Positions 17,497 through 52,767 of a stretch of 64,000 nt of DNA are shown here, one piece after another. The DNA is from Phycisphaerae bacterium (lineage in GTDB: Bacteria > Planctomycetota > Phycisphaerae > FEN-1346): positions 5,513 to 69,512 of the forward strand of contig DATKXP010000079.1 of NCBI GenBank assembly GCA_035529015.1. The letters are read 5' to 3'. Both the position numbers and the translations under genes were made by a program. Each line of letters starts with the position of its first letter. Position 1 is the stretch's first letter. Under the pieces are notes generated by a model. That model worked only from the letters and a program-made list of their open reading frames with translations, was not told the origin of the DNA and did not search any database.

Positions 17497-17507
17497 GTGC
17501 GGATGCC

Positions 17508-34973: not shown

Positions 34974-35292
34974 CGGTGCCTGTGTGTGCCACTTCTCAGC
35001 CGCCCCCACTGTCAGACCCCGCGCGCCGCCGCGCTTCCGCTGGCGCTCCCCCACCGGCAACTTCCCGTGGACCGCCACCGCTCACGCACGTGCTCATGGT
35101 TCGGTAAGGCACGTGCAAACAGGAAGGCCGGGTACACCGTTGGGAGGATTCCTGAGCAGCCAGCACCCGGCGTCTGCGGATCCTATGCCCAAGGTGCGCA
35201 ACATCGTGTTGCGCGATGGGTCGGACTTGACGCCGTGCAACGGATGTGGTACCTTAGGCTTGACTAGGGTAGACGATGAGGGGCTTGGCGGA

Positions 35293-35529
35293 ATGCCTAC
35301 CGAAGTCAACGGCACAGAGTATTTCTCAACCACAGAGGTTGCGGAGCGCGCCTGCGTGTCGAGGCAGACAATATGGCGCTGGCGAAAGAGCGGCGTGATC
35401 CCTCCTGGGCGTAGGTACCGGAACGGTCAGGTGCTTTTTACGGAGGAAGAGGCGGATGCCATCGAGGCGCACGCAAACAGGCTCGAACCTCTTGACAGTG
35501 GATTCCAGACGCACCCCACGCTATTCTGA
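35293..35529 (+). CDS. MerR/excisionase-type HTH protein
   Basis: YFSTTEVAERACVSRQTIWRWRKSGVIPP; SD GAGGGG before ATG 35293 (alternative start 35185). Confidence 0.6.
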   Translation: MPTEVNGTEYFSTTEVAERACVSRQTIWRWRKSGVIPPGRRYRNGQVLFTEEEADAIEAHANRLEPLDSGFQTHPTLF

Positions 35530-35565
35530 CAGAGCCCTTGTTTGACACAGGAAGGCAGAATCTCT

Positions 35566-36741: not shown

Positions 36742-36743
36742 CG

Positions 36744-37649: not shown

Positions 37650-40600
37650 AGCGGGTCGGCGCGCAGGCGGTGATGGGGGCCTTTCGGCAGAGCGGGTCCT
37701 GCGTTCGATTAACCTCTGCTACGATGCAAGTGCTCCAGAGAGAATCTCGCACTTCCGCCCCACAAGCAAGAGCGTGGCTCTGGTGCGTAGCCTCCTTGCC
37801 CAAGCCGAGGAGCGCGCCTTTCTCATCGTCGCTCCGTATGGCTCGGGAAAGTCGATAACGCTTGCATATCTGCTGCAGCTCATAGAGAACCGCGCGTCTG
37901 CACAGGCTACGCTCAAGGCTATTGAAGGGCGGCTTGCGGGCGTGTCGCCTGAGTTGCACCGTTTTGCTCGACGTAGGCGTCGACAGGGGAGAAAGGGCCT
38001 TGTTGTGGCCCTCCATGGCTACTGCAGCGACTTGCCAATGCGTCTCAAGGAAGCAGTCCTAGAGGCCATGGGGAGAATGAAACTGGGGCGCCAAGCGAGG
38101 ACCATTGGGGCACTGCCTTCCGGTTCTATCGAACAGGCTGTCAACCTCCTCGCCGTTCTCCAACAGAAGTGTCGAGCAAGTGGCTTGGATAGAATCAGCA
38201 TTATGTGGGACGAGGCAGGTCGGCACATTGAGGCCTTGGTGAGCCACGGTCGTGCCTCTGAACTGGCAGACATTCAGCTACTTGCCGAGTTTGCCTCCAG
38301 ATCGAGTGATCTGCCAATCACCTTGGGCCTCGCACTTCACCAGGCCCTCTTTCACTATGCGGGGCAGATGCCGCAGTCAGTGCGCACCGAGTGGATGAAG
38401 ATCTCGGGCCGCTTCCAGGAAACCCAGTACATCGACGATAGCCGAGAGGTATACCGCTTGGTGTCCGAGGTTGTGGCAGCCAACAGAGGCAAGGTGGGGC
38501 GGCCGCCAAGGAAGCGATTCCTGGATATAGCCCGACGGTGCCGCGACGATCTCGGCCTCTTCCCTGGCGTGGCGCTGACGCAACTGGCCGAAATGCTCGG
38601 GCGAGCGTATCCGTTGGAACCCATAGCCTTCTACCTCCTGCCCAGGGTATCCGCCCGTGTCGCCCAGTACGAAAGAACCCTTTTTACATTCCTTTACTCG
38701 GTGGACATGACTCGACCCATCTCCGCGGCCGACTTGTATGACTACTTCTCTTCGGCCATGAGGGCTGACACTACTGTTGGGGGAACGTACAAGCAGTGGC
38801 TGGAGACGCAGAGCGCCCTTCTGAAGGTCCACGACGACCCCAAGCAAGCCCAGGTGTTGAAGACCGCCTGTCTGCTGGGTCTGGGGACGAGCGGAGAACG
38901 AGCTAGAGCTGGGCGGGAGATGGTGACGGTGGCTTTGGCTGGTCTTGACGACAAGGCGCCGTGGAACGACACCATTGATGCGCTTATTGAAAGAAATTTG
39001 CTTCTCCATCGCAAGCATAATGATGAGCTTTCGGTGTGGCACGGCACAGATTTCGACCTTCGCGGGAAACTCGAGGAGGAGAAGAGCCGGCATGCTGGCA
39101 GCTTCGCCCTCGTAGAGTTCCTCACACGCGAGGCACCCCCCAAGACATGGAAGCCGCTGCAGCATAACAGTAGATGCGGCGTCTGTCGGTACTGGGAAGG
39201 TGAGTACGTTTCCCCAGAGGCCTTTGCCTCTCTTGCACGTGGCGAGCGGGAAGCTTCGATCCCGGTGGGGTGTGACAGCAAGATCCTCTATCTTCTAGCG
39301 GAGGACCACGAGCAACTCAAGCTTGCCGGCAATCTAGCGAAACGTTGGCGCGCAGATCCACGGTTGCTTGTGGTGGTGCCTGCCAGACCTCTACGGGCAC
39401 GCGATGCAGCCCTAGAGGTCTTCTGCCTCTCCGAGATGGTCCACAATGGCGACCTCGTTGGCAGCGATCCGCTCGTAGCGCCCCAACTTCAGCAGATGAT
39501 GGACGACGCACGGTCGCACCTCCACAGAATGCTTGACGGGATGCTCATTCCCGGGAGGGATGGTCCGGCGTGGTTCTGGCAGGGAGAGGAGATGGCTGCA
39601 GGAACTGTAGGCGAACTGCGCCGAACTCTATCGGATATCGCTGACCAGGTGTTCCCCTTGACACCAGTGATCCGGAACGAATTGGTCGTCAGGCGGAAAC
39701 CCTCGGGGACAGTTGTCAATTCGAGGAAGAAGCTCTTGCTCGGGATCCTCGATAGACATGGCCAAGAGAACCTTGGGATAAGGGGGCACTTCCCGGACTA
39801 CTCCATGTTTCGCACTGTGCTTGTCCATACCGGACTCTATCGAGAGGGCGAGGGTCGATGGGGCTATGTCGCGCCCTCCTGCAAAGGACTGGAGCGCGGC
39901 ATCGCAGCGGTATGGCAGAAGCTCCAGACCTTCTTTGGCGAGCCCAGCGAGAAGCCGAAAAGACCTGCTGACTTACTCAGGGAACTGCGCGAACCACCTT
40001 ATGGCGTCAGAGAGGGCCTGCTGCCTATTCTGTTTGCGGCTGGTTTCAAGGCGTTCTCGCGGGTCGTATCGCTGACCAAGGACGGCCGGTACGTCACGGA
40101 CGTCATGCCTGACGACATCGAGGATCTATGTCGCCATCCGGACTCCTACGCTCTCTCGGTCCTAGCCTTGGGCGAGGACGAACTCCGCTACCTACGCAGG
40201 CTGCACAGCTGCTTTAGCCCGGTGTCCGACGTCATCGTGGCAGAGAATGACCTGATCCGCCTCTGCTACGACGCGATTCAGGGATGGAAGTTCCAGCTGC
40301 CGTCGTCCGCCTTGGCCACGAAGAGCTTGTCAGGCCAAGCGATGCAGTTCCAGCAGGCGCTGCGAGAGGACGAGGATCCGGTCAAGCTGTTGCTTCAGGA
40401 TCTTCCTGCAATTGCCGGGGTTCAGGTTGAGAAGGTTGATGAGGTCCTCGATGCCATCCGCGAAATGAGGCGCGGGATGGAAGGCGTAGCCAAGACTTTC
40501 GTGGACAAGGCGTCAGCCTCCATACGCAAAGCGTTAACCCATGGTTCTTCCGAAGGCGCAGGTGACCTTCGCGAACTCGCGTCCCGTTGGTCGGCTAGCA

Positions 40601-40995
40601 TTCCCGAAGCAGTTCTGGCCGGAGCTGTTCCTGCCGTTGCCAAGGGCCTTCTCAGTCGAATGCAGAGCGAGTACGATATCGATGAGCTCTTGGTCGAGTC
40701 GCTGTCTTTGCTGATCGTTGGGCGTCCGATAAGTCGCTGGGACGATGGCACTGCAGTAACCTTTGACAGCCGCCTCCGCGACATGGTACACAGGATCGAA
40801 GAGGCCGCACTTGACACCAAGGTGAATGGAGAAGACCGCCGTCACTGGGAGGGCATGAGTGATGTGATTCGTCAGCGCCTGGACTATCTCCTGAGGCAAT
40901 TGGTCAGGTTGGCCGGTGAAGACGAGGCAAGAAGAGCTGTGGACGAGGTGCTGAGACGGCATCTGAGTGAGAAACCGCATGGCAGCGCTAGTTGA
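37639..40995 (+). CDS. sspC: large P-loop ATPase (SspC-like)
   Basis: 1118 aa; Walker A APYGSGKS; overlaps both neighbours; call rests on synteny. Confidence 0.65.
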   Translation: MPHRAGRRAGGDGGLSAERVLRSINLCYDASAPERISHFRPTSKSVALVRSLLAQAEERAFLIVAPYGSGKSITLAYLLQLIENRASAQATLKAIEGRLAGVSPELHRFARRRRRQGRKGLVVALHGYCSDLPMRLKEAVLEAMGRMKLGRQARTIGALPSGSIEQAVNLLAVLQQKCRASGLDRISIMWDEAGRHIEALVSHGRASELADIQLLAEFASRSSDLPITLGLALHQALFHYAGQMPQSVRTEWMKISGRFQETQYIDDSREVYRLVSEVVAANRGKVGRPPRKRFLDIARRCRDDLGLFPGVALTQLAEMLGRAYPLEPIAFYLLPRVSARVAQYERTLFTFLYSVDMTRPISAADLYDYFSSAMRADTTVGGTYKQWLETQSALLKVHDDPKQAQVLKTACLLGLGTSGERARAGREMVTVALAGLDDKAPWNDTIDALIERNLLLHRKHNDELSVWHGTDFDLRGKLEEEKSRHAGSFALVEFLTREAPPKTWKPLQHNSRCGVCRYWEGEYVSPEAFASLARGEREASIPVGCDSKILYLLAEDHEQLKLAGNLAKRWRADPRLLVVVPARPLRARDAALEVFCLSEMVHNGDLVGSDPLVAPQLQQMMDDARSHLHRMLDGMLIPGRDGPAWFWQGEEMAAGTVGELRRTLSDIADQVFPLTPVIRNELVVRRKPSGTVVNSRKKLLLGILDRHGQENLGIRGHFPDYSMFRTVLVHTGLYREGEGRWGYVAPSCKGLERGIAAVWQKLQTFFGEPSEKPKRPADLLRELREPPYGVREGLLPILFAAGFKAFSRVVSLTKDGRYVTDVMPDDIEDLCRHPDSYALSVLALGEDELRYLRRLHSCFSPVSDVIVAENDLIRLCYDAIQGWKFQLPSSALATKSLSGQAMQFQQALREDEDPVKLLLQDLPAIAGVQVEKVDEVLDAIREMRRGMEGVAKTFVDKASASIRKALTHGSSEGAGDLRELASRWSASIPEAVLAGAVPAVAKGLLSRMQSEYDIDELLVESLSLLIVGRPISRWDDGTAVTFDSRLRDMVHRIEEAALDTKVNGEDRRHWEGMSDVIRQRLDYLLRQLVRLAGEDEARRAVDEVLRRHLSEKPHGSAS

Positions 40996-41791
40996 AGCGA
41001 TTGCAACCATAGAGAAGCAGCCTGAGGTGCGGCACATCGTCAGCATTTCGGGCGGGAAAGACTCCGCGGCCTTGGCGGTCTATCTCCGCCAAGCCTATCC
41101 CAAGATCCCGGTGGAGTATGTTTTCTGTGATACGGGATGCGAGCTTCCGGAGACCTATGACTACCTTGAGCGGCTGCAGGGATTGCTGGGGAAGAGTATC
41201 GTTCGGGTGAACGCCTTCGACGTACTCCGCGTTCCCGAGAAGCCCGGCCGCAACCCGTTTGACCTGTGGCTCAGTATGTACGGAGGCTTTCTGCCGAATC
41301 CCAGAAGTCGCTGGTGTACACGAGCACTCAAGATCGAGCCATTCGAGGAGTCCATTGGCAACGACACCGCGTTCAGCTACATCGGCATTCGCGGCGATGA
41401 GGACCGCCAAGGGTATCGCCCGAAGAAGCCTCCGAAATTCTCACAGCGTCCCAACATCATCCCGGTGTACCCGTTCAAAGACGACGCCATTTGCCTTGAG
41501 GACGTGAAATGTATCCTCGAGGAATCCGGTCTAGGCCTGCCAGAATACTACCGCTGGCGGTCGCGCTCTGGCTGCTACTTCTGCTTCTACCAGCAGATTG
41601 GTGAATGGCAAGGCCTGCTCGAGAACCATCCGGATCTCTTCGAGAGGGCGAGGCAATACGAGACCAAGAAGAACGGCCGGGACTTCACCTGGGTCGACGG
41701 AAGGACGCTCGGGGATATTGAGCGGTTGGGGGAACGCTACCCCGTGCCCACGATGGACGAAGTTGAGGGCTGCGCCATCTGTCACCTCTAG
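40967..41791 (+). CDS. sspD: PAPS-reductase/ATP-pyrophosphatase family protein (SspD-like)
   Basis: PP-loop SISGGKDSAA; 274 aa; C-terminal Cys pair CAIC. Confidence 0.8.
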   Translation: MRNRMAALVEAIATIEKQPEVRHIVSISGGKDSAALAVYLRQAYPKIPVEYVFCDTGCELPETYDYLERLQGLLGKSIVRVNAFDVLRVPEKPGRNPFDLWLSMYGGFLPNPRSRWCTRALKIEPFEESIGNDTAFSYIGIRGDEDRQGYRPKKPPKFSQRPNIIPVYPFKDDAICLEDVKCILEESGLGLPEYYRWRSRSGCYFCFYQQIGEWQGLLENHPDLFERARQYETKKNGRDFTWVDGRTLGDIERLGERYPVPTMDEVEGCAICHL

Positions 41792-41824: not shown

Positions 41825-42253
41825 GTGAAACTCTATGTTGCATCCCATTCCCTGGAAAAGGCACAGGAGATGCGGGATCTGCTCCTGCAGCGCGGCCACG
41901 AAGTGACGTCACGCTGGATCACAGAGGACAGCAAGTTCCACCTTCCTGGGGACGCATACACGCCAGATGAGCGTGAGAAGATAGCCGTAATGGACGAGGC
42001 GGATGTCAGACTTGCCGGTGATGGAGTGGTTGTCTTGAGCGAGGAGTCGGGGCGGTGTGTGCCCGGGGGCAAGCACGTTGAGGCAGGCATAGCACTGGGC
42101 CTCGGCAGGCCAGTATACGTTGTGGGCCATAGGGAGAACATCTTCCACTGGCACCCCCGGGTTCGAGTCTTTGGCGATGCGCACCAGCTCCTTGGCTACT
42201 TGGCGCGCCTTGAGGAGTGTTCGGCTGCCCCTCCCGAGGGGACACAAGCATAG
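41825..42253 (+). CDS. nucleoside 2-deoxyribosyltransferase-like protein
   Basis: 142 aa; KLYVASH...DEADVRLAGDGVVVL...GGKHVEAGIALGLGRPVYVVG matches the NDT/Rcl-like fold pattern with a conserved Glu. Confidence 0.55.
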   Translation: MKLYVASHSLEKAQEMRDLLLQRGHEVTSRWITEDSKFHLPGDAYTPDEREKIAVMDEADVRLAGDGVVVLSEESGRCVPGGKHVEAGIALGLGRPVYVVGHRENIFHWHPRVRVFGDAHQLLGYLARLEECSAAPPEGTQA

Positions 42254-42863
42254 GGCGCGCGTCTGCCCCTGGGGCCGGAGGGTCTGATCCTGAACCGTCT
42301 CCTCCTGCCCACAGAACACTGGTCCAGATTACAGCCAGGACAAAACCTAGAGCAGCTATCGCTTCAACAGCCCATATCCAGTACTTGACTTTGGTAGCCT
42401 TGTGGCCGGTTTTTAGGTCGACCGTTTCCAAGGCTTTCCGATCAGGCTCGATCCGAGCTAAGCCGAGCTGCTGGTCCTTTGCCTTCCCTGGCCGGGTGTA
42501 CCGAAATGAATCGGGGAAGACCCACTGCCTCTCCATCTCATCAAGTACTGCCGATGCACGCTCGACAAACGCGAGCATGCGCACATCGAAGGCAATGAAC
42601 GCGATGGACACTATGAAGCCGAAGCTCCCCGCGAAGACGGCGATGGGATGGAGCCCTTCCCTGATCGCCAATACGATGGCATTAGCAAGGATGCCCACTG
42701 CAAGAAGAAAATAGTTAAAGAACAGCATGCGCTGCCGCGAAGCGGATTCGAAGTACTTCCAGGCGTAGTCAAGACGTGACTTCAGCAACTCGGCGTGGTC
42801 TTGCCTGTCTTTACTCACGATCGGCGCCTCGATACGGCCGCAGGGCGTATTCAGTGCCCCCAC
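42006..42863 (-). CDS. three-TM membrane protein (SLATT-like topology), 3' tail overlaps the convergent NDT-like gene
   Basis: Helices MLFFNYFLLAVGILANAIVLAI, IAVFAGSFGFIVSIAFIAF, YWIWAVEAIAALGFVLAVIW; the last ~85 codons are low-complexity and overlap 41825..42253. Confidence 0.5.
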   Translation of the reverse strand: MGALNTPCGRIEAPIVSKDRQDHAELLKSRLDYAWKYFESASRQRMLFFNYFLLAVGILANAIVLAIREGLHPIAVFAGSFGFIVSIAFIAFDVRMLAFVERASAVLDEMERQWVFPDSFRYTRPGKAKDQQLGLARIEPDRKALETVDLKTGHKATKVKYWIWAVEAIAALGFVLAVIWTSVLWAGGDGSGSDPPAPGADARPMLVSPREGQPNTPQGAPSSQGAGAHRQRLEPGGASGRCSPYGPQRILACRGPVLCLPQRACPRAHTAPTPRSRQPLHHRQV

Positions 42864-43038: not shown

Positions 43039-43068
43039 TTGCACGCGAGGATGCTGTCGCGGTATGAT
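43039..43068 (+). promoter_or_regulatory. candidate sigma70-like promoter for the helicase/GHKL/PLD operon
   Basis: TTGCAC, 18 nt spacer, TATGAT, 77 nt upstream of GTG 43145. Confidence 0.4.
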
Positions 43069-43144: not shown

Positions 43145-44761
43145 GTGACGAAGCTTCTTGAGACGCTTACGCGCTTGGGTACTGGCCTGCTTGCCCAGTT
43201 CTTGGGCGAAAGCACGGTTAGTCTTCTGGAGCTTCTCGGCCTGAAGCAACTACAGCCTCATCGCTTGGCAGAGCTGGTCCTGAGGCAGGTGGGCCCTGAA
43301 GACCTTCTGTTGGTCAAGAGCCGCAGGGACGAGATTACGGACGCGCTGAGTCGCGAGGATGCGGACAGACTCGCCCGGCTTCTGGGCCTATCGTCAACAG
43401 ATGATCCCTGGCATTCGGTGAGAAGCCTACCCGTCTCGCCGAACAGCCCCGCCTGCGAAGTCCTATTCGCCTTCTTCGGTTGTCGCTTACCCAAGGAGCG
43501 TGAAGGGTCAGATAAGCCCTCGAGTTTGCGGATCGATCCCGGCTACAGTCTGTTCCAACATCAGGTGAAGGCATGTCGCGAGACAGCGTCATTCCTCGAG
43601 GAAGCATCGCAGCCACGAGTCATGCTTCACATGCCGACGGGGGCGGGTAAAACCAGGACGGCGATGAATGTGATCGCCACTTTCTTGCGAGACCGATTCA
43701 GCAGTGACGATGTAGTTGTCTGGGTCGCACACAGTGAGGAGCTCTGCGAACAAGCAGCTGAGGAGTTCGAGAAGGCCTGGTCCTTTCTCGGAAACCGCCC
43801 CGTCGCAGTACAACGTGCCTTTGGCCGGTACCGGACCCCCCTTGATAAAATGAGCGGGGGGATCTTGATCGCGGGGCTGCAACTCCTGTACAGAAGGAGC
43901 CTTTCGGAACAAGGCGTGTTCCTGAAGCTCGCACGCCGTACCCCTCTAGTGGTGATGGATGAGGCCCACCAGGCGATCGCGCCGGCATACCAGCAAGTTC
44001 TCAATCTTCTCGCTGGGGACCCGCGGACAGCCATATTAGGCTTGTCTGCCACCCCTGGTCGTAGCCTGCTTGATGCGCATCAGGATATGGAGCTAGCGCA
44101 GTTCTTTAAGAGGCACAAGGTCACCCTGAGGGTGGAAGGCTATGACAGCCCCGTCCAATACCTGCAAGAGAATGGCTACCTTGCCAAAGTAGACTATGAC
44201 TACGTTCCGTACGCTCCAGGGCCCGATTTCGCCCTCACCCGAGACGAAGTCACCCGGCTTCAGACTGAACTCGACCTACCCGACTCCGTCATTGCCCGAC
44301 TCGGGGCAGACCACAAGCGCAACTTCCTTATCGTGACCAGGCTGATTGAGGAGGCCAAGCAAGGCGGGAAGATCTTGGTCTTCGCCTGCTCAGTGGAGCA
44401 TGCTCATTTGCTCGCCAGCATATTGTCTGCGAAGGGATTACGTGCAGCAGCTGTCTCGACCAGGACCTCGCCGGCCAGAAGGCGGCAGTTCATCGCGCAG
44501 TACAAAGAAGAAGGTGGCATCCAGATTCTCTGCAACTACGGAGTCCTTACTATGGGTTTTGACGCCCCCAAGACAAGTTGTGCTCTGATCGCTAGGCCAA
44601 CACAGTCTGTTGTCCTCTACAGCCAGATGGTTGGGCGCGCTGCAAGGGGCCCCAAGGTGGGAGGCAATGTTACGTGCAGGGTCATCACCGTTGTGGACCG
44701 CCTTCCGGGCTTTCGGAGTGTCGCGGAAGCATTCGAGTACTTTGAGGAGATCTGGGAATGA
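43145..44761 (+). CDS. DEAD/DEAH (ResIII-type) SF2 helicase
   Basis: MLHMPTGAGKT (motif I), VVMDEAHQ (motif II), LSATPGR (motif III), QMVGRAAR (motif VI); GTG 43145 after GGGGGGA (ORF-track start 43103). Confidence 0.8.
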   Translation: MTKLLETLTRLGTGLLAQFLGESTVSLLELLGLKQLQPHRLAELVLRQVGPEDLLLVKSRRDEITDALSREDADRLARLLGLSSTDDPWHSVRSLPVSPNSPACEVLFAFFGCRLPKEREGSDKPSSLRIDPGYSLFQHQVKACRETASFLEEASQPRVMLHMPTGAGKTRTAMNVIATFLRDRFSSDDVVVWVAHSEELCEQAAEEFEKAWSFLGNRPVAVQRAFGRYRTPLDKMSGGILIAGLQLLYRRSLSEQGVFLKLARRTPLVVMDEAHQAIAPAYQQVLNLLAGDPRTAILGLSATPGRSLLDAHQDMELAQFFKRHKVTLRVEGYDSPVQYLQENGYLAKVDYDYVPYAPGPDFALTRDEVTRLQTELDLPDSVIARLGADHKRNFLIVTRLIEEAKQGGKILVFACSVEHAHLLASILSAKGLRAAAVSTRTSPARRRQFIAQYKEEGGIQILCNYGVLTMGFDAPKTSCALIARPTQSVVLYSQMVGRAARGPKVGGNVTCRVITVVDRLPGFRSVAEAFEYFEEIWE

Positions 44762-46554
44762 CCACTCACGCGAAGCAAGAGCAGTATGAGATTCTCCCTC
44801 CGCATCTCGCTGTTAAGGCGATGCGTGACTCAGGCTACCGGGACACGGCACACGCCTTGGCAGAGCTTGTGGACAACAGTGTTCAGGCCGGCCAGGAAAT
44901 CGACAGCCGTACGGAGGTCGAGGTGCTCTGCATTGACAAGGTCGAGCTGGTGGGAGAGCGGCGCCGTCAGCGCATATGCGAGATCGGCGTGTACGACAAC
45001 GCTTGTGGGATGGATGCCGAAACGCTTCGCATTGCCCTGCAGTTTGGGAATGGCAAGCACCTTGAACCGGCCGAGCAGAAGGGCATTGGCAAGTTTGGGA
45101 TGGGGCTCCCCAACGCCTCGATTTCGCAGTGTCGCCGTGTCGACGTGTGGTCCTGGCAAAACGGTGCCTGCGTGCACACCTGCATTGATGTGGACGAGAT
45201 ACTCAGCGGGAAGCTCCGTAGCGTGCCGGAGCCCAAGTCATCCGGGATTCCCAAGAAGTGGCGTGGGCTCTTCCGGGCCGATGTAGAGGAACATGGGACT
45301 CTCGTGGTATGGTCAAAGATCGACCGCGTGCGATGGAAGACTAGCACAGCCTTCCTCCGGCACGCGGAATTCCTGCTTGGGCGCATGTATCGGTACTTCC
45401 TCGACCACAAAAGGATCACCATACGGCTGTGCTCGTTTGAGGAAACGGGTGGCGACCACAGCACTAGGATCGACCGTGATGTGTTGCCAAACGACCCGAT
45501 GTACCTGATGAAAGGCACTTCGGCGCCCGCCCCGTTCGACGAGGAGCCGGCATTCGATCTCTTTACCGAATACCCCTTGGCTGTGGCCGCAGACGGAAAC
45601 GAATACGAGGTCCGGCTGCGGTTCTCAGTGACGACCAAGAAAGCTCGCCACTGCGGCGGGAGTGCCCCGATCGGCAAGCATGCGGCTAAGAACCTGGGGG
45701 TCTCTCTAGTCAGAGCCGACCGTGAACTGGAAATGAACAACACCTTTGACCTGCGCTACGACCCTCGAGAGAGGTGGTGGGGTGTGGAAGTCCTCTTCGG
45801 TCCGGAGCTCGATGCCGTCTTCGGCGTGACCAATACCAAACAGGCCGCGACTGCGTTCAGGCAATGTGAGCTGGATGAGGACGCGGCGGCTGAAGACTTG
45901 ACGCCGGGCGAATACGAGGAACAGCTTAGGGAATCCAACGATCCACGACTCGCGGTTTACAAGATATCGCACGAAATCACGAAGAACCTCGGGACAATCC
46001 GTGAGCAGATCCAGCGCATGCGCGAGGGTACGCGGAAGCCAGAGGATGTAGCTCCGCCTCCGGGCTCAGCCGAGGACATTGCCACAAAGGCCACGAAGCG
46101 GCGGCGCGAGGAGCTTGGAAAAGAAGGGAAAAGCGACGAGGATGAGGGGCGTCCAGAAGATGAGCGAGAAAAGGAACTTGCGGGCGAACTGATTGCCGAG
46201 GGCGTGGAAGAGAAGGAAGCCAAGGAGATTGCGGTTCAGTATGTTCGTAAGCAAATCAAATACCTCTTCCAGGAAGCGCCGATTCCGGGCGCTGCGATCT
46301 TTGACATTCGTGCCAAGGCCGGCACGATCATCATCCTTATAAACACACGTCATCCTGCCAGCGAACACCTTTTTGCGCTACTAAAGGAGGACGATGATGG
46401 GAGCACGCCGGCCTTGGAGGCGCTGAAGCTGTTGCTGACGGCTTGGGCACGACTTGAGGACGAGGCGGGCGAGATGCGTACGCAGGAGTTGGAGGACATT
46501 CGGTCCGATTGGGGGCGGATTGCGAGAGACTTCCTCCAGGCAGCCGAGGACTAG
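44758..46554 (+). CDS. GHKL (HATPase_c_3 / MORC-like) ATPase
   Basis: ATGA overlap with the helicase; N-box ALAELVDNSVQAG, DNACGMD, GIGKFGMG boxes; acidic coiled region near the C-terminus. Confidence 0.7.
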   Translation: MTTHAKQEQYEILPPHLAVKAMRDSGYRDTAHALAELVDNSVQAGQEIDSRTEVEVLCIDKVELVGERRRQRICEIGVYDNACGMDAETLRIALQFGNGKHLEPAEQKGIGKFGMGLPNASISQCRRVDVWSWQNGACVHTCIDVDEILSGKLRSVPEPKSSGIPKKWRGLFRADVEEHGTLVVWSKIDRVRWKTSTAFLRHAEFLLGRMYRYFLDHKRITIRLCSFEETGGDHSTRIDRDVLPNDPMYLMKGTSAPAPFDEEPAFDLFTEYPLAVAADGNEYEVRLRFSVTTKKARHCGGSAPIGKHAAKNLGVSLVRADRELEMNNTFDLRYDPRERWWGVEVLFGPELDAVFGVTNTKQAATAFRQCELDEDAAAEDLTPGEYEEQLRESNDPRLAVYKISHEITKNLGTIREQIQRMREGTRKPEDVAPPPGSAEDIATKATKRRREELGKEGKSDEDEGRPEDEREKELAGELIAEGVEEKEAKEIAVQYVRKQIKYLFQEAPIPGAAIFDIRAKAGTIIILINTRHPASEHLFALLKEDDDGSTPALEALKLLLTAWARLEDEAGEMRTQELEDIRSDWGRIARDFLQAAED

Positions 46555-46557
46555 CAC

Positions 46558-47526
46558 GTGGCGGATGCCCCGATGGCCTACTTAGTGTGGCAGCCGATAG
46601 GGCTTTTCCTGGAGGAGGTGCTGGGTGGAAAGGACGCGCCTCTCTTGTTCATTGTGCCCTTCATACAGCGAAGGGCGATTGCGCGCATGCTGGACGCGTG
46701 CAGGGACACGGATCAGCTCAAGGTCGTGACTCGATGGCGGGCCGGCGACATTCTGTCGGGAGTCTCGGACCTCGGTGTTTACGACGAGTTGCGGGAGCGC
46801 CGTATACCCCTGTATGTGAATGACCGCATTCACCTGAAATTGCTCGTGTTGAACTCAAACGAATGCTTTGCCGGAAGTGCCAACCTGACTGACGCAGGCC
46901 TCGGCTACGCTCAACACCAGAACATCGAGCTCGGCTGTCGCTCTTTGTTGGAGTCGAGGGACTGGGGGCATGTGTTCAGGATAGTGGAGGAGAGCGCACT
47001 CGTTGACGACACTGTGTTTGAACAAGCCAAGCGTTTCGTTGCAGAGAATGAAACTCAGCCGGAGGAGACCCTTGCCACAAAGCCCTTCACGCACCCACAA
47101 AAGGAGTTCTCCCTTAACGCCTTACCGGCAACGGCGGACCCTTTGCGACTGGAGCAGTTCTTCTGCTCCACGTCACAATCCCATGACGACCCGGAGACGG
47201 AGCGACGAGCGCTCCACGACTTGGTGGTGTTTGACATAGCTGAAGACACTCCTTCGGATAGTTTCCGCGCAGTCCTGGGCGAACGCTTCCGGGCGAAGCC
47301 ATTTGTTCGCGCCTTCGTGGGCTACCTGGAAAGCAAGTGCAGGCTTCGGTTCGGCGAAGCCAATGCGTGGATACATTCGCACTGCTCCGACGTGCCTCTC
47401 CCATACCGTTGGCAGATCAAGGAGAACACGCATATTCTCTACGACTGGCTCGCGTTCTTCTACGACGAGATCAAATGGCGGGTACCTGGGCGCCGATCGC
47501 AGGTGATCTTCTGGGAGCCGGCTTAG
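46558..47526 (+). CDS. PLD-family (single HKD) nuclease-like protein
   Basis: HLKLLVLNSNECFAGSANLT = HxK...GSxN HKD-type motif. Confidence 0.65.
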   Translation: MADAPMAYLVWQPIGLFLEEVLGGKDAPLLFIVPFIQRRAIARMLDACRDTDQLKVVTRWRAGDILSGVSDLGVYDELRERRIPLYVNDRIHLKLLVLNSNECFAGSANLTDAGLGYAQHQNIELGCRSLLESRDWGHVFRIVEESALVDDTVFEQAKRFVAENETQPEETLATKPFTHPQKEFSLNALPATADPLRLEQFFCSTSQSHDDPETERRALHDLVVFDIAEDTPSDSFRAVLGERFRAKPFVRAFVGYLESKCRLRFGEANAWIHSHCSDVPLPYRWQIKENTHILYDWLAFFYDEIKWRVPGRRSQVIFWEPA

Positions 47527-47743: not shown

Positions 47744-48034
47744 ATGGCAAAGGGAAGCAGATCTGCATTTCGCGACCAGGCCCAGGGTTTTGGGCTGCTC
47801 TCGGATCCGACACGTCTGGGCATCCTCTCGCTCCTCGCGAAGGGCCCGAAGAACGTCACGGCATTGTGCAAGGCCCTCGGCCTGAAGCAGCCCACGGTTA
47901 GCCACCATCTCGGGCTACTCCGGATGGGCCGGCTTGTCATCAATACTCGTCAGGGCAAGTCCGTGGTGTACTCGACGGACAAGGCGAACCTGAAGGCGCT
48001 GGCGTCGGCGCTGGCGAAGCTGATGCCGAAGTAG
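47744..48034 (+). CDS. ArsR/SmtB-family transcriptional regulator
   Basis: LSDPTRLGILSLLAKGPKNVTALCKALGLKQPTVSHHLGLLRMGRLV is a textbook ArsR winged-HTH. Confidence 0.75.
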   Translation: MAKGSRSAFRDQAQGFGLLSDPTRLGILSLLAKGPKNVTALCKALGLKQPTVSHHLGLLRMGRLVINTRQGKSVVYSTDKANLKALASALAKLMPK

Positions 48035-48618: not shown

Positions 48619-49746
48619 GTGATTCGGTTCCTGCACACGAGCGACTGGCAGTTGGGAATGACCCGCCACTTTTTTGCGGAGGGTGCGCAGGAACGCTACA
48701 GCCAGTCGCGGTTCGATGCCGTTCGCACCATGGGCCGCATCGCCAGGGATGAGCAATGCCAGTTCATGCTGGTGTGCGGCGACGCCTTTGAGTCGAACCA
48801 GGTGGACCGGAAGACCGTTGCCCGCGCTCTGGAGGCGCTCAAGGATGTGCCCGTTCCGGTGTTCATCCTTCCGGGTAACCATGACCCTTTGAACGCGGCT
48901 TCCGTATATCGTTCGAGCACCTTCATTGAGCGGAAGCCCCCGCAGGTGCAGGTGATTGAGACCGCCGCACCCATCAAGGTCGCAGAGGGCGTGGAACTGG
49001 TGGGTGCGCCGTGGATGTCGAAGCGACCGGTCACCAATCCCATTGAGGATGCGATCAACGCCCTTGCGCCTGCGAACGGGGTTGCCCGCATTTGCATGGG
49101 TCACGGTGCAGTCGATACGCTTACGCCAGACCGAGAGTCCGCCGGGATCATTTTAGTCGCCGTGCTCGAACGAGCCCTTGGCGAAGGGAAGACTGACTTC
49201 GTGGCGCTTGGCGACCGGCATTCTCTGACCAAGGTCGGCGGCGACCGTATCTGGTATTCGGGGACGCCCGAGGCCACGGATTTTCGGGAGACACAGTCCG
49301 GGTATGCTCTCATCGTGGAGATCGGTGACGGCAGTGTGAACACCAAGGGTATCCAGGTCGGCCAGTGGCGGTTCCTCGAGCGCGAACGGGTTGATCTCAA
49401 CACCGCCGATGATGTGGAAGCGTTATGGAAGTCACTGGAGGGAATTGAGAACAAGGACCGCACAGTCGTTCGGTTGAACCTCGTTGGCTCGCTTTCCCTG
49501 GCCTTGAGCGGCGCGCTTCAGAATCACCTCCTCGCCGCGAAGGACGTTTTCGGTGCCTTCGATGTTCGGGACGACGCACTTCTCGTGCTGCCGGACGATA
49601 CGGATTTTGCCAACCTTGGATTCTCGGGCTTTGCCGACGGAACCGTGCAACGGCTCCGAAGCAAGATTGCGGATGGTGGAGATGAAGGTACGGTGGCCCG
49701 CGAAGCCTTGATGCTTCTGCTTCGGCTGGCAAGGGGGGCGGCATGA
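48619..49746 (+). CDS. SbcD/Mre11-like metallophosphoesterase nuclease
   Basis: FLHTSDWQLG, CGDAFES, LPGNHD, MGHG phosphoesterase motifs in order. Confidence 0.75.
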   Translation: MIRFLHTSDWQLGMTRHFFAEGAQERYSQSRFDAVRTMGRIARDEQCQFMLVCGDAFESNQVDRKTVARALEALKDVPVPVFILPGNHDPLNAASVYRSSTFIERKPPQVQVIETAAPIKVAEGVELVGAPWMSKRPVTNPIEDAINALAPANGVARICMGHGAVDTLTPDRESAGIILVAVLERALGEGKTDFVALGDRHSLTKVGGDRIWYSGTPEATDFRETQSGYALIVEIGDGSVNTKGIQVGQWRFLERERVDLNTADDVEALWKSLEGIENKDRTVVRLNLVGSLSLALSGALQNHLLAAKDVFGAFDVRDDALLVLPDDTDFANLGFSGFADGTVQRLRSKIADGGDEGTVAREALMLLLRLARGAA

Positions 49747-52376
49747 AATTCACTCGCCTTCGAGTCGTAAACTACAGGGGCATAGCTGCCGCCGAAGTGA
49801 AGTTCGGTCCCGCTGGCATTACGCTCGTGCAGGGCCCGAATGAAGCCGGGAAAACCAGTCTTGGCGAGGCCATAGGGCTTCTCTTCGAGTACTTGGATTC
49901 AAGCAAGCATCGGAATATCGAAGCCATCAAGCCGGTCCATCGGGACGAAGGGCCGGAGATCGAGCTGCAAGCGGAAAGCGGGCCTTACGCCTTCACCTAT
50001 CTCAAGCGATTCCTCAAAAGACCGGAAACCAAACTCACTATTACCAAACCCAAGCCCGAAAACCACACGGGACGCGAAGCACACGAACGCGCCGAGGCCA
50101 TCCTCCGCGAAACTCTCGACATTGACCTCTGGAAGGCGCTGACCATTCAACAAGGCGACGCCATTCACCAGCCTGTCCTAACGAAACAGACATCGCTTTC
50201 GGCCGCGCTCGATAAAGCGGCTGGCGGTCGCCCCGCCGATCCTCGGGAAGAAGGCCTGTTCGACAAGGTACAGGATGAATACCTCCGGTACTACACCGAA
50301 CGTGGAGCGGAGCGAAAGGAACTTGCGGAGTCCCGCAAGGCACTGTCAGACACCGAAGCGGAAGTTGCCCGTATCGAGCAGGCAATCCGCGACCTTGACC
50401 AGGACATCGACCGTGCGGCCGCTCTTCAGGGGGAACTGGGCCAACTGAGGAAGCAGGAAGACGAGCTGACGAAGGCAGTGACTGCTCACGCAGCTTCACT
50501 TGAGGAAATAGGCACTTTGGAAAATGCTCTTTCGGCGGCTCGCCTGAAGTTGGAGTCGGCGCAGAAATCCGAGCAGGTCGCCCGCCGAGACAAGGACGCA
50601 CGCCAAGGACTCATTGATGCGGTTGGCAAAGCTGCCAAGGCGCATGGGGACATTGAGGAATCCGGCGTCATGTCGCTCTCGGCGCTGGATCAGGCCGAGG
50701 TCAAGCTCAAGGAAGCGCAGAAGGCTTTCGATGAGAGCGACCAGAAGAGAAAGGCGGCTGATACCCTTGCCGCTCTCGGGCGTGCTGATTTTGACTACTA
50801 CAACAACAAACTGCATCTCGAACAACTCCGGGAACGCAAGGAACGCATTGACCAAGCCAGGAAGAACGCTGCCCAAGCGGAGGAGGTGCTGGTCCGAAAC
50901 AAGGTGGACTCGCGCGCATTGAAGTTAATCGAGGACGCCGAACGTGGGTTGCTGACCGCCAACGCGCAGTTGCAGATCGGTGCACCGAGCGTGCTCCTTC
51001 GCGGCCTGGCCGATTGCCGAATATCCGTTGACGATGCCGAGGTCAAGCTTGGCAAGGGGGAGGTTCGGACGATCTCAGTCGCGGACAGATCCCGTCTGAC
51101 CATACCCGGCGCGTTGGACGTAGAGATCACGGCGGGGGCTGGTGCCGAAGGGCTGTCCAGAAAGGTCGAACAGGCGCGTCGAGTTCTGGATGATGCCTGC
51201 GCCAGAGCGGGCGTTTCCAGCCCCGATGAGGCGAGAAAGGCGTATGAAGAGCGCCGCGAAGCAACCCGGCATGTGGAATTCATAACGCAGGTGGAGAAGG
51301 ATAATCTGCGCGATCTGACCTATGAGGAACTGGACAAGAAACTGCTTGGCCTTCAGACAGCGATGCCCGGCTATCTTGCCAAGCGTGTGGTCGAACCCGC
51401 CATTTGTCCTGACCTGGATTCGGCGAAGAAAGAGCGGGCAAGTGCTGAGGCGTTACAGCAGGAAAGGGGTGGTCAGTGGGAATCGGCTCGCGAGTCACTT
51501 GATGCCGGCCGAAGCGTGCGGGATGGCTTGAACACCAAGCACCAGGAATTGCGGGTCCAACTCGACCTGTTGTCCCAAGACCTCAACCACGCACGCGAAA
51601 ACCTCGAACGGGCGAGAAAGAGCGTTCCCGACGATGCTCTGGAGACAGCTCTGGTGAACGCGGTCCAGACCGTGGCTTCCGAGGATGCCAGCGTTCGTGC
51701 CGCCGAGACCTCACTCAAGGCGAAGAACCCCGACCGGGTGAGGGTATTGGCCGAGACGGCCAAAGGCTCCTTGCGAACGACGCAGAATCGACGGAATGCA
51801 GCTCAAACCGAACTCACCGAGGTACAGACGCGGCTCAAAATCCACGGCGAGGAAGGGCTTCACGAGAAGCTACACGTGGCTCAGACCGGCCTTGAGCGTC
51901 TTGTGGCAGACAACACATCCCTGTTTCGGCGGGCGTCTTCAGCCAAATGTCTCTTCGAGACCATACGAGAAGAGCGAGACAAGGCGCGGCGGGCGTATGT
52001 GGCCCCGCTCAAGGAGAAGATTGAACAGATGGGCCGTTTAGTCTTCGATGACTCCTTCCAAGTGGACATCAGCGAGGAATTACGGATTGCCAGTCGGACG
52101 CTGAAGGGCATCACCGTGCCGTTTGACTCGTTGAGCGGTGGCACAAGGGAACAGCTTTCGCTGATCTTCCGTTCCGCTTGCTCGATGATCGTCGCCAAGG
52201 ATGGTGGAACGCCGCTCATCCTGGATGATGCGTTGGGCTATACGGACCCGGATCGGTTGCGTCTCATGGGGGCCGTGCTGGCAAAGGCCGCCAAGGACTG
52301 CCAGATCGTGATCTTCACGTGTGTGCCCGACCGCTATGGTAACATTGGCGAGGCAACCGTCGTTTCATTGCGATGA
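49743..52376 (+). CDS. SbcC/Rad50-like (YhaN-type) AAA ATPase
   Basis: ATGA overlap with the nuclease; Walker A GPNEAGKTS; ~600 aa coiled coil; signature SLSGGTREQ and Walker B LILDDALGYTD. Confidence 0.75.
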   Translation: MKFTRLRVVNYRGIAAAEVKFGPAGITLVQGPNEAGKTSLGEAIGLLFEYLDSSKHRNIEAIKPVHRDEGPEIELQAESGPYAFTYLKRFLKRPETKLTITKPKPENHTGREAHERAEAILRETLDIDLWKALTIQQGDAIHQPVLTKQTSLSAALDKAAGGRPADPREEGLFDKVQDEYLRYYTERGAERKELAESRKALSDTEAEVARIEQAIRDLDQDIDRAAALQGELGQLRKQEDELTKAVTAHAASLEEIGTLENALSAARLKLESAQKSEQVARRDKDARQGLIDAVGKAAKAHGDIEESGVMSLSALDQAEVKLKEAQKAFDESDQKRKAADTLAALGRADFDYYNNKLHLEQLRERKERIDQARKNAAQAEEVLVRNKVDSRALKLIEDAERGLLTANAQLQIGAPSVLLRGLADCRISVDDAEVKLGKGEVRTISVADRSRLTIPGALDVEITAGAGAEGLSRKVEQARRVLDDACARAGVSSPDEARKAYEERREATRHVEFITQVEKDNLRDLTYEELDKKLLGLQTAMPGYLAKRVVEPAICPDLDSAKKERASAEALQQERGGQWESARESLDAGRSVRDGLNTKHQELRVQLDLLSQDLNHARENLERARKSVPDDALETALVNAVQTVASEDASVRAAETSLKAKNPDRVRVLAETAKGSLRTTQNRRNAAQTELTEVQTRLKIHGEEGLHEKLHVAQTGLERLVADNTSLFRRASSAKCLFETIREERDKARRAYVAPLKEKIEQMGRLVFDDSFQVDISEELRIASRTLKGITVPFDSLSGGTREQLSLIFRSACSMIVAKDGGTPLILDDALGYTDPDRLRLMGAVLAKAAKDCQIVIFTCVPDRYGNIGEATVVSLR

Positions 52377-52384
52377 GCCGATGT

Positions 52385-52631
52385 TCACGTAGATGCCAGC
52401 TCGGCAACAGCTTTGAGTTGCTGGTGCGCGTCATCGAACAGCGTGATGGGCCGCAGGAGGCGTTCGGAAATGGCAGGACGCTCCACCGTGGCGGGCATGG
52501 CCAGTACGGCGCTCCTGAATTTCCGGCACGAGGCGGAGAAGCATCATGATCTGCGTGACGCGGGCGCGCGTGAGGCCTTGAGGTGACAGACGCCTTGTGC
52601 CAAGCACACGGCACCCCACCTGCCGAACCAC
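52385..52631 (-). pseudogene. frameshifted remnant of a small ParB/KorB-like HTH gene
   Basis: GLTRARVTQIMMLLRLVPEIQE in one frame; after one extra C the natural continuation (R)VLAMPATVERPAISERLLRPITLFDDAHQQLKAVAELAST lies in the +1 frame. Confidence 0.35.
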
Positions 52632-52656
52632 CCCACATCAGGCACAAATGGCGGCC

Positions 52657-52685
52657 TTTCCCCCGTGTTCGGCAACGAGTATAAT
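52657..52685 (+). promoter_or_regulatory. candidate promoter for the 52768-54946 gene pair
   Basis: Perfect -10 TATAAT at 52680-52685; poor -35 (TTTCCC); 83 nt upstream of the ATG. Confidence 0.3.
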
Positions 52686-52767
52686 GCCTGCCATTACTGG
52701 TGTCTGCGCCGATTTCCTGTCGGCTGGGGGCCGGAGGGAACGGCAGGTGATACAGGGAGAACAAACG

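Follow-up and report, generated by a model that had tools for sequence, protein, structure and literature searches.

A helicase, MORC-like GHKL ATPase and PLD nuclease triad as a probable restriction partner of SspABCD

Three adjacent genes downstream of sspABCD in a Phycisphaerae bacterium (contig DATKXP010000079.1; the window, the whole stretch of DNA analysed, is 64,000 nucleotides long) encode an SF2 helicase, a MORC-like GHKL ATPase and a PLD nuclease. Judged from sequence comparison, this triad is probably (probability about 0.72) an ATP-driven restriction effector that works with the phosphorothioate (PT) marking by SspABCD and would add a third class to the described Ssp partners, SspE and SspFGH. 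Across many bacterial phyla the triad is almost never found without the ssp marking genes, and it is therefore very probably a hitherto undescribed weapon that tells self from viral DNA by the sulphur mark. As an Ssp-coupled restriction module, it is most likely undescribed so far; the literature check covered open-access papers and bioRxiv and found no description of the triad.

The genes of the modification module are canonical, as confirmed by PADLOC, and lie on the plus strand upstream of the triad. They encode the cysteine desulfurase SspA (35542–36741; Pfam Aminotran_5, 2.7e-65; PADLOC SspA, 1.4e-121), the DUF4007 DNA-binding protein SspB (36744–37649; Pfam DUF4007, 1.4e-62; PADLOC SspB, 1.4e-104), the large BrxC-like ATPase SspC (37639–40995; PADLOC SspC, 6.1e-168, full length) and the PAPS-reductase-like sulphur transferase SspD (40967–41791; Pfam PAPS_reduct, 3.1e-10; PADLOC SspD, 2.3e-92). 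A prophage-like element at tRNA-Arg carries the whole ssp/triad island as cargo, together with an SbcCD-like pair.

The triad, also on the plus strand, begins 1353 bp past the end of sspD, in agreement with the distance of about 1.3 kb given in the preliminary description. The helicase gene (43145–44761; 538 aa) starts at a GTG preceded by GGGGGAG; its mechanical ORF begins upstream, at 43103, and the protein was likewise called at 538 aa, independently, on four metagenome contigs that carry this locus. Its stop codon overlaps the ATG of the GHKL ATPase gene (44758–46554; 598 aa) in an ATGA, and the stop codon of the latter is separated by 3 nt from the GTG of the PLD nuclease gene (46558–47526; 322 aa), for which one gene caller chose an alternative ATG at 46573 (317 aa). 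The proposed coupling of the three genes is thus borne out. The ‘plausible promoter’ suggested ahead of them was not recovered: a consensus scan of 42.86–43.15 kb returned no sigma-70-like site and no excess over shuffled sequences, and by eye only a weak TTGCAC-18-TATGAT (43039–43068, 8/12 matches) precedes the helicase gene. The gap between sspD and the helicase gene contains a called gene for 142 aa (41825–42253) and a possible membrane ORF on the minus strand; these genes are unrelated to ssp or the triad, which is thus set apart from sspD in this genome.

All three proteins have intact catalytic motifs, and the family assignments made from the sequence alone hold. The helicase is of the SF2 ResIII type (Pfam ResIII, 5.9e-23; Helicase_C, 3.2e-12). 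Its ResIII and Helicase_C core occupies residues ~136–538, with Walker A PTGAGKT, DEAH, SAT and the GR of motif VI; residues 1–135 form a helical, uncharacterised N-terminal region with no Pfam match. The closest solved relatives are RadD (6jde, 1e-20) and SauUSI (7clg, 3e-14).

The ATPase is MORC-like, with a match to Pfam HATPase_c_3 (9.1e-18) and a predicted fold of the MORC/SMCHD1 type (AlphaFold pLDDT 86.6); the top Foldseek matches were SMCHD1 (6mw7, 3.6e-12), MORC4 (7k7t), MORC2/3 and MutL. A Bergerat ATPase domain (residues ~12–200) is followed by an S5-type transducer (~200–420) with an invariant K361 within FGVTNxKQ; beyond a charged linker lies a conserved C-terminal domain (~495–598) with the motif AWARLEDE...DWGRIARDF. 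The ExxxN (E36, N40), DxxxG (D80, G84) and GxxGxG (G111–G116) motifs are invariant in 71 homologues, and residues 314–324, GVSLVRADREL, nearly fit the MORC S5 motif GhXhhpXXRhl.

The nuclease has one HKD motif per chain and a predicted fold similar to Nuc and SauUSI (AlphaFold pLDDT 93.9; top Foldseek matches Nuc 1byr, SauUSI 7clg at rank 2, Zucchini and NucT), while its match to Pfam PLDc_2 (3.5e-5) is under the Pfam cut-off. H92, K94, S107 and N109 of the Nuc-like N-terminal catalytic domain (residues 1–147) are invariant across 56 homologues. The C-terminal domain (148–322) is conserved and uncharacterised; it has no Pfam match, and its sole PDB match, a designed protein, is not meaningful. 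No PT-binding domain is recognisable in the triad, the three accessory domains of which have no informative sequence match in Pfam or PDB.

A comparison with known partner genes identified none of them as the triad. In searches where the PADLOC models of SspE, SspF, SspG and SspH did detect other proteins, the triad proteins matched none of these four, nor those of DndF-H and PbeB-D; identity with SspE, SspFGH, DndFGH or PbeABCD was ruled out, the only match being a partial one to PbeA (2e-23), confined to the helicase lobe. No curated NCBIfam threshold was reached, and PADLOC similarity was at the domain level only. This argues for a distinct module on the theme of a MORC/paraMORC ATPase, an SF2 helicase and a nuclease.

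PbeA, in which an HKD nuclease and an SF2 helicase are fused, belongs to the restriction side of DndCDEA-PbeABCD (PMC6459918, PMC10853773). It resembles the triad as a restriction-side partner of a PT system built from the same PLD/HKD nuclease and ResIII/Helicase_C motor domains. However, PbeA is one fused chain, whereas the PLD and helicase of the triad are separate, with the PLD gene last; in place of the CxC ABC ATPase PbeC, the triad has a MORC-like GHKL protein as its partner ATPase; it has no genes for PbeB or the DndE-like PbeD; and PbeABCD accompanies DndCDE, whereas the triad accompanies Ssp (DUF4007/SspC). SspE and SspFGH share with the triad a position beside sspBCD, the same genomic role, a patchy distribution and the ability to combine in one locus (PMC8092258). 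Neither SspE (DUF262 and a nuclease), nor SspF (a Walker-A protein), nor SspH (some 1,800 aa, FtsK-like at its C-terminus) is homologous to the triad proteins.

Operons combining a MORC/paraMORC ATPase, an SF2 helicase and a nuclease were predicted to be restriction-modification systems by Iyer, Abhiman and Aravind in 2008 (PMC2292703). Like the triad, they encode a GHKL and S5 ATPase, an SF2 helicase of the Rad25/ResIII type and a nuclease (HKD, restriction-endonuclease fold or HNH), and are sporadic and spread by lateral transfer; MORC and SMCHD1 were also the best structural matches here. They are, however, tied to DNA methylases or Vsr, and PT, DUF4007 and PAPS reductase are unlinked to them in that work. 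SauUSI and CglI/NgoAVII likewise carry out ATP-dependent restriction by a PLD nuclease powered by an SF2 helicase-like motor, and both the helicase and the PLD protein have SauUSI among their best PDB matches. In CglI (PMC5861437), the R (PLD and DNA-binding domain) and H (motor) subunits are separate, the former resembling the separate PLD of the triad with its extra C-terminal domain. SauUSI differs in consisting of one chain, which includes an SRA-like reader, and in attacking modified DNA; CglI differs in its DEAD-Z1 motor and B3-like domain, and both differ in having neither a GHKL subunit nor a PT system. Matches to MzaB, the MutL-like GHKL defence ATPase of MZA (63 bits vs a cut-off of 850), and to DrmC, the PLD nuclease of the modification-based system DISARM (25 bits vs 133), are limited to the ATPase or HKD cores, and the partner genes differ.

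Evidence for a connection with Ssp comes from the linkage of the genes. Relatives of the GHKL ATPase are encoded in 566 GTDB species genomes (species representatives), and the best 80 of these 566 loci were examined. In 77 of the 80, the gene immediately before that for the GHKL protein encodes the helicase. Fifty loci have 9 kb or more of sequence on each side; in 46 of these (92%) at least two of sspB, sspC and sspD lie within 10 kb, and in 37 all three do; the ssp-linked loci are spread over about ten phyla. In two of the four exceptions (L026 and L027), SspF/SspG genes directly follow the triad. The ssp genes are also present on 12/12 plasmids with a GHKL protein of at least 38% identity, compared with 70 SspD-positive plasmids in a total of 72,556, and all three IMG/VR viral contigs carry sspABCD and the triad. 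Co-occurrence, suggested earlier as a check, is therefore near-obligate and not at background. For comparison, dndCD lies close to 42% of PbeAC pairs (PMC6459918). In three loci (L001, L003 and L092), the order is sspA-B-C-D-helicase-GHKL-PLD, and the helicase gene follows sspD after about 100 bp. Plasmid A of Trichormus variabilis ATCC 29413 has sspB-C-D-...-helicase-GHKL-PLD-cysteine desulfurase on one strand, and Treponema pTS1 has sspD-B-C-A-helicase-GHKL-PLD, the GHKL protein there being just 30% identical, yet ssp-linked. Correlations between GHKL and Ssp protein identities are weak by rank (Spearman 0.14–0.42).

In view of this linkage, it is unlikely that the three genes form a self-sufficient restriction module (paraMORC-type or type-IV-like) that ignores PT and lies near ssp only because both reside in the same defence islands and mobile elements. 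Such a module would fit the MORC/paraMORC operons found with methylases or alone (PMC2292703), the resemblance of the helicase to PADLOC type IV enzyme models (3e-15), the plasmids of Roseivivax and Nocardiopsis, on which more distant GHKL proteins (~26% identity) are encoded and no ssp genes were found, and, in the window, the genes inserted after sspD and the location of the island in a prophage-like element. However, the linkage in genomes, plasmids and viral contigs far exceeds island sharing, ssp is constant among the best 80 of 566 loci while the remaining neighbours vary, a methyltransferase is not conserved with the triad, and cyanobacterial and spirochaete operons embed the triad between sspD and sspA.

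Restriction by the triad as the partner of Ssp, a role supported by this comparative genomics, can be pictured as follows. The SF2 helicase would translocate along DNA like the motors of type I/III enzymes, SauUSI, CglI and PbeA, and the MORC-like GHKL protein may dimerise upon ATP binding, clamp or compact DNA and couple the motor to the nuclease. With one HKD motif per chain, the PLD protein would need to dimerise, as Nuc does, in order to form an active site, and the dimer would cut DNA without the Ssp-type PT marks of the host. Host PT written by SspABCD would either block or license the complex, so that the chromosome is spared. Complex formation, translocation, cleavage and PT dependence are all predictions.

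The helicase and GHKL genes are a fixed core and the nuclease is swapped: the third gene encodes a PLD protein in 40 loci, a PD-(D/E)xK/Cap4-like nuclease in 18, an HNH nuclease in five and another protein in two, which fits an effector role. The module also occurs alongside SspFGH in 12 proteobacterial loci and in Agrobacterium, and alongside SspE in Hymenobacter. The earlier proposal that it acts in place of SspE thus stands for the window, where no large ORF tested matched SspE or SspFGH, but not generally. According to published data, 84% of sspBCD loci lack both sspE and sspFGH, and further partners were predicted (PMC8092258). The systems are often stacked, and in such loci PT-dependent restriction could be the work of SspFGH or SspE, the triad having another function; since SspE and SspFGH also co-occur and act additively (PMC8092258), stacking is no argument against an effector role.

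One such function would be in modification, where the helicase and GHKL protein open or remodel DNA for SspBCD to insert single-strand PT, or set PT density, and the nuclease nicks or repairs. The position inside ssp operons and the stacking with bona fide restriction partners are compatible with this, and DNA opening is plausibly needed since SspB has been described as a nickase and Ssp PT is single-stranded (PMC12914056, PMC8092258). This role is nevertheless improbable: in E. coli, IscS and SspBCD suffice for PT (PMC8092258), the module is absent from most ssp loci (about 12 of the 70 SspD-positive plasmids have it), and a third gene that alternates between three unrelated nuclease folds is what one expects of an effector, not of a biosynthetic step. 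A back-up suicide (abortive-infection) effector that degrades host and phage DNA alike, without discrimination, when Ssp is inhibited or overwhelmed is less probable still: a role of this kind was put forward by Aravind and co-workers for some Dnd-flanking nucleases (PMC10853773), and swappable non-specific nucleases (Nuc-like PLD, Cap4-like, HNH) and the stacking would suit it, but in that study the back-ups are nucleases that stand alone at the edges of systems, whereas SF2 helicase-coupled nucleases are treated as true restriction enzymes, and the triad nuclease is translationally coupled to two ATPases.

The three genes downstream of sspD, occupying window positions 43145–47526, probably encode a defence effector coupled to the Ssp phosphorothioate (PT) system; on the evidence of sequence, a probability of about 0.7 is assigned to this reading. 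The Ssp modification module consists of adjacent or overlapping plus-strand genes at 35542–41791 for a cysteine desulfurase (sspA, 35542–36741), a DUF4007 protein (sspB, 36744–37649), the large SspC ATPase (sspC, 37639–40995) and a PAPS-reductase-like protein (sspD, 40967–41791). PADLOC recognises the module with E-values from 1e-92 to 6e-168, and sspA, sspB and sspD are also assigned by Pfam. After a gap of 1353 bp the triad follows on the same strand. The helicase gene (538 aa) runs from a GTG at 43145, preceded by GGGGGAG, to 44761, within a mechanical ORF that opens at 43103; the same length of 538 aa is found in independent gene calls on four metagenome contigs with an identical locus. 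The ATG of the GHKL ATPase gene (598 aa; 44758–46554) overlaps the helicase stop codon as ATGA, and the PLD gene (322 aa; 46558–47526, alternative ATG at 46573) starts 3 nt past the GHKL stop. The coordinates and the translational coupling proposed in the preliminary description are thus correct. The plausible promoter that it placed ahead of the triad was not borne out: a sigma-70 consensus scan upstream of 43145 was empty and gave no excess over shuffled sequences, and by eye only a weak TTGCAC-18-TATGAT is seen at 43039–43068.

The 1.35 kb that separates the helicase gene from sspD is a local insertion in the window. In the closest relatives (loci L001, L003 and L092) the seven genes run as a single operon without interruption, sspD and the helicase gene being about 100 bp apart. 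The spacer contains a plus-strand gene for a 142-aa protein (41825–42253) with a weak nucleoside 2-deoxyribosyltransferase-like match (E = 0.001) and a possible minus-strand ORF (42006–42863) with a sub-threshold match to an 8xMP membrane protein. As they converge with an overlap of about 250 bp, at most one of these extents can be right; both ORFs are absent from L001 and L092. The seven genes are flanked by a MerR/HTH_17 (excisionase-like) gene just before sspA (34954–35529) and a gene for a 96-aa ArsR/Csa3-like winged helix–turn–helix protein just past the PLD gene (47744–48034; PADLOC Csa3, 3e-15). HTH genes also precede the module in Mesorhizobium and Hymenobacter plasmids.

The domains, folds and motifs of the three proteins agree with their initial description as an SF2 ResIII-type helicase, a MORC-like HATPase and a single-HKD PLD protein; PGAP names them "DEAD/DEAH box helicase", "ATP-binding protein" and "phospholipase D family protein". 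The helicase matches Pfam ResIII (5.9e-23) and Helicase_C (3.2e-12), with Walker A (PTGAGKT), DEAH, SAT and motif VI present and conserved. Among solved structures it is nearest to RadD (1e-20) and to the SF2 motor of SauUSI, a PLD restriction enzyme (3e-14). It is related to RadD but is not a member of that family, scoring 117 bits with the NCBIfam model against a cut-off of 720. The GHKL protein matches HATPase_c_3 (9.1e-18; 65 bits against a cut-off of 25) and possesses the Bergerat ATP-binding fold; in motifs I–IV, residues E36, N40, D80, G84, G111–G116 and G180 are invariant in 71 homologues. Its predicted structure (pLDDT 86.6) is MORC-like overall and includes an S5-fold transducer; the best Foldseek matches in the PDB are SMCHD1, MORC4, MORC2/3 and MutL over about 400 aligned columns, and K361 is invariant in the motif FGVTNxKQ of the 71 homologues. 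The MORC-specific S5 motif GhXhhpXXRhl was defined by Iyer et al. (2008; PMC2292703). GVSLVRADREL (residues 314–324) comes close to it, agreeing at 10 of 11 positions and having E where the motif calls for a hydrophobic residue; G314, S316, R319, R322 and E323 are invariant. A charged linker leads to a conserved C-terminal domain (approximately residues 495–598).

The PLD protein has only a sub-threshold Pfam match (3.5e-5). Its model (pLDDT 93.9) resembles Nuc, the SauUSI nuclease domain, Zucchini and NucT, with a TM-score of 0.72 to Nuc (1byr), normalised to the target. Each chain carries one HKD motif, H92-L-K94-LLVL-N99...GSAN(109)LT, in which H92, K94, S107 and N109 are invariant and the D position of HxK(x)4D(x)6GSxN is N. 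These comparisons place the protein in the nuclease branch of the PLD superfamily (Nuc/BfiI/SauUSI type), the single motif implying a dimeric active site. All three proteins look catalytically competent. Pfam and PDB profile searches gave no match for helicase residues 1–135 and no informative match for the GHKL C-terminus or the conserved 175-residue C-terminal domain of the PLD protein; the one match obtained for these regions, to a designed protein, is spurious.

Comparison of the triad with SspF/G/H, DndF/G/H and PbeA–D profiles, a check proposed at the outset, places it in none of these systems and hence marks it as a distinct module. SspE combines an N-terminal DUF262 domain, a PT-stimulated NTPase, with a C-terminal nuclease, whereas the triad lacks DUF262; neither the triad nor the other large window ORFs tested match PADLOC SspE or Pfam DUF262. 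The same SspE models do detect a Hymenobacter DUF262 protein (5e-53). The triad likewise gives no match to the SspF, SspG and SspH models, which yield E-values of 0 to 1e-247 on genes of the proteobacterial-type locus L013 and of L026. It is unlike SspF, a Walker A protein, and SspH, whose chain of about 1,800 aa ends in an FtsK-like region; the 64-kb window has no gene for a protein as large as SspH. PADLOC finds no Dnd restriction match, and NCBIfam dnd_restrict_1 reaches 41 bits against a cut-off of 600. Membership of MZA and DISARM was rejected with the curated equivalogs MzaB (63 bits against 850) and DrmC (25.5 bits against 133). PbeABCD was rejected on the split architecture of the triad and on the lack of adjacent PbeB, PbeC, PbeD and dndCDE. 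In PbeA, PLD, ResIII and Helicase_C form one polypeptide, whereas in the triad the PLD protein (322 aa) is separate from a helicase (538 aa) that lacks this domain; the PADLOC PbeA model aligns to the helicase only over positions 243–439 of 672. The partners of PbeA are the CxC ABC ATPase PbeC, the small PbeB and the DndE-like PbeD, in contrast to the GHKL ATPase of the triad. PbeC gives only a partial match (7e-5), to an unrelated SMC-like gene at 49743–52376.

By analogy, the triad would work most like the PbeA-type and SauUSI/CglI-type enzymes; in SauUSI and CglI an SF2 motor drives a PLD nuclease. PbeA joins an HKD nuclease to an SF2 helicase in a PT system, according to PMC6459918 and PMC10853773. 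The gene content also follows a theme recorded by Iyer et al. (2008; PMC2292703), where operons of MORC or paraMORC with an SF2 helicase and a nuclease are predicted to be restriction-modification systems; that paper does not link such operons to PT, DUF4007 or PAPS reductase. A full-text search of open-access papers and bioRxiv found no coupling of Ssp, DUF4007 or PAPS reductase with GHKL/MORC and helicase, and targeted reading of PMC8092258, PMC10853773, PMC12839542, PMC12914056, PMC2292703, PMC6459918, PMC3632139 and PMC8569181 gave no account of the triad with Ssp. Current defence annotation (PADLOC v2 and NCBIfam 20) misses the triad.

The GHKL family comprises 3,334 proteins at E < 1e-5, the top 120 being 54–75% identical along their full length. 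A GTDB scan with one genome per species gave 566 loci with a GHKL relative, the best 80 of which were fetched with 10-kb flanks. These 80 span, among others, Planctomycetota, Alpha-, Beta- and Gammaproteobacteria, Cyanobacteriota, Chloroflexota, Acidobacteriota, Armatimonadota, Elusimicrobiota and Latescibacterota. According to tblastn with the window proteins, the helicase gene immediately precedes the GHKL gene in 77 of them. Where at least 9 kb was available on both sides (50 of the best 80 loci), at least two of SspB, SspC and SspD are encoded within 10 kb in 46 (92%), and all three in 37. Two of the four exceptions, L026 and L027, carry SspF and SspG immediately past the triad, and their sspBCD genes are probably just beyond the flank, as in a fully resolved Agrobacterium plasmid; the other two, both cyanobacterial, have an adjacent sspA. 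Among 72,556 plasmid records, 12 encode a full-length GHKL relative of at least 38% identity and all 12 carry ssp genes; an SspD homologue occurs on only 70 plasmids of this collection. All three IMG/VR contigs with a full-length GHKL relative also carry the helicase, PLD and sspABCD genes.

PMC12914056 puts sspBCD in about 3% of representative genomes, so background co-localisation would be orders of magnitude below that observed; the co-occurrence that the preliminary description proposed to measure is therefore well above background, which supports its reading of the triad. The link holds at 30% GHKL identity, in the single operon sspD-sspB-sspC-sspA-helicase-GHKL-PLD of Treponema saccharophilum pTS1, and is lost at about 26% (Roseivivax, Nocardiopsis), so that a clade tied to Ssp can be delimited within the broader radiation of GHKL proteins. 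A paraMORC restriction module acting autonomously, its link to ssp being no more than a shared island, would fit the operon theme of Iyer et al., but is improbable beside linkage of this extent. Covariation of GHKL and Ssp identities was discarded as evidence of co-evolution: Pearson coefficients of 0.72–0.84 fall to Spearman values of only 0.14–0.42, a few close relatives driving the former. A blastn search with the Pseudomonas gene found no E. coli example of the module.

The gene that follows the GHKL gene is exchangeable. In the best 80 of the 566 loci it encodes a PLD protein, as in the window, in 40; a protein of about 360 aa with an N-terminal PD-(D/E)xK/Cap4-like nuclease (PADLOC "Effector endonuclease", 8e-15; weak Pfam Cap4_nuclease match) in 18; a 148-aa HNH endonuclease (Pfam HNH, 9e-15) in five loci of Nostocales; and a 317-aa protein with no recognised fold in two planctomycete loci. 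In the remaining 15 it is absent or lost at a contig end. A fixed ATPase core combined with swapped nucleases that differ in fold is characteristic of defence effectors rather than of accessories to biosynthesis. A role in assisting PT installation is as improbable as the autonomous module. The two planctomycete loci are L004 (11841–12794) and L005 (11833–12777), where a protein of about 315 aa without a recognisable fold stands in for the nuclease. Its C-terminus resembles the GHKL C-terminal domain with its AWARLE...DWGR motif, which hints that this type of domain is a docking or oligomerisation module.

The arrangement of the genes varies between lineages. Many proteobacteria have the order sspF-sspG-sspH-helicase-GHKL-nuclease, followed by sspD-C-B on the opposite strand (as in L013); SspFGH adjoins 12 of the 18 loci of this type. 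A Hymenobacter plasmid encodes SspE (the DUF262 protein; PADLOC, 5e-53) beside sspBCD and the triad. The module is thus either the only candidate partner of sspABCD, as in the window, or stacked with known ones. The suggestion that the triad acts in place of SspE holds for the window, where no tested ORF matches SspE or SspFGH, but not generally, since elsewhere the module stacks with either. A back-up suicide nuclease is the least probable alternative, marginally below the autonomous module and the PT-installation helper.

On plasmid A of Trichormus variabilis ATCC 29413 the triad is flanked by sspBCD on one side and the cysteine desulfurase gene on the other, and is accompanied by a DndB-domain protein (768 aa; Pfam DndB, 1.8e-7; no PADLOC SspE match); a 'DNA phosphorothioation-associated putative methyltransferase' gene is divergent from sspB. 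In several loci, mostly cyanobacterial, a gene for a DndB-domain or DUF262-like protein separates sspD from the helicase gene (L081, 7869–10175; L009, L037, L067 and L069, approximately 6100–7300). In many Nostocales loci (including L040, L060, L065, L068 and L073) the helicase ORF is about 310–410 aa, with tblastn coverage of 55–67%, and in several of these sspA directly follows the GHKL gene, without a nuclease gene. Split or decayed helicases, or degeneration of the module, may explain this pattern.

In terms of gene content, the locus is best regarded as a PT-based restriction-modification system whose effector module is undescribed. The data show the anatomy, conservation and linkage of the genes and the exchange of the effector; the mechanism is drawn from knowledge of the families. 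MORC ATPases are ATP-dependent DNA clamps. The triad would form an ATP-dependent restriction complex that distinguishes self from non-self by Ssp phosphorothioation: the SF2 protein would translocate on DNA, the MORC-like GHKL dimer would clamp it and couple ATP state to nuclease activation, and the single-HKD PLD protein would dimerise and cut DNA lacking host PT. One of the three accessory domains would probably sense PT or dock subunits. PT may block or license the complex; such details are much less sure than the assignment as a defence effector.

With rather better than even odds, the GHKL protein, SF2 motor and exchangeable nuclease constitute an undescribed, widespread effector (about 0.3% of species genomes, about 10–17% of ssp loci) that reads a backbone sulphur mark; it would be the third Ssp restriction class and the first link between a MORC-type ATPase and PT epigenetics. 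Further Ssp partners were explicitly anticipated in PMC8092258, and the domain theme is known, so the module is not categorically new. The same paper gives about 84% of sspBCD clusters as lacking a known restriction partner; the module (12 of 70 SspD-positive plasmids, about 566 species genomes) would explain a sizeable share of them. The seven-gene cassette is concrete, testable, cleanly delimited and widespread, and its natural variants (PLD, PD-(D/E)xK or HNH, with SspFGH or SspE in addition) are ready-made controls for PT sensing and for cooperation of stacked effectors. The eukaryotic relatives MORC and SMCHD1 silence chromatin in response to epigenetic marks. A tie between prokaryotic MORC ATPases and a defined epigenetic mark would make the bacterial MORC mechanism experimentally approachable.

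The island of ssp genes and triad is cargo of a prophage-like integrative element, as indicated by a gpA-type terminase large subunit (2831–5095), a phage capsid protein (21033–23153), a tape-measure-like protein (28568–30913) and then a tyrosine integrase (58709–60220) abutting tRNA-Arg(CCT) (60133–60209). A minus-strand AcrB pump gene (60543–63692) marks the chromosome beyond. No tRNA-Arg att repeat of at least 14 nt lies inside the window. The same seven-gene system occurs on the three IMG/VR viral contigs. The terminase and capsid genes are separated by a second low-GC block (5561–18851; 0.58–0.61 against 0.66). Its products are an amidase, a ParA-like ATPase, two asparaginases, two radical-SAM proteins and a sodium:solute symporter, unusual cargo amid phage structural genes.

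Beyond the triad lie genes for an SbcD/Mre11-like phosphoesterase (48619–49746) and, overlapping it by 4 nt, an 877-aa SMC/Rad50-like ATPase (49743–52376), followed by two genes without a convincing family (52597–53940 and 53933–54946), the second with a weak sub-threshold winged-HTH match (DUF7343). These genes (48619–54946) are possibly a separate unnamed defence system, their PADLOC matches being weak (LmuB, 3e-11). The SbcD-like/SMC-like pair was rejected as a conserved part of the module, as it is missing, by tblastn, from essentially all of the 80 loci. The ssp–triad locus of Mesorhizobium pOM4 has an analogous set of AAA ATPase, DNA-repair exonuclease and WYL genes alongside.
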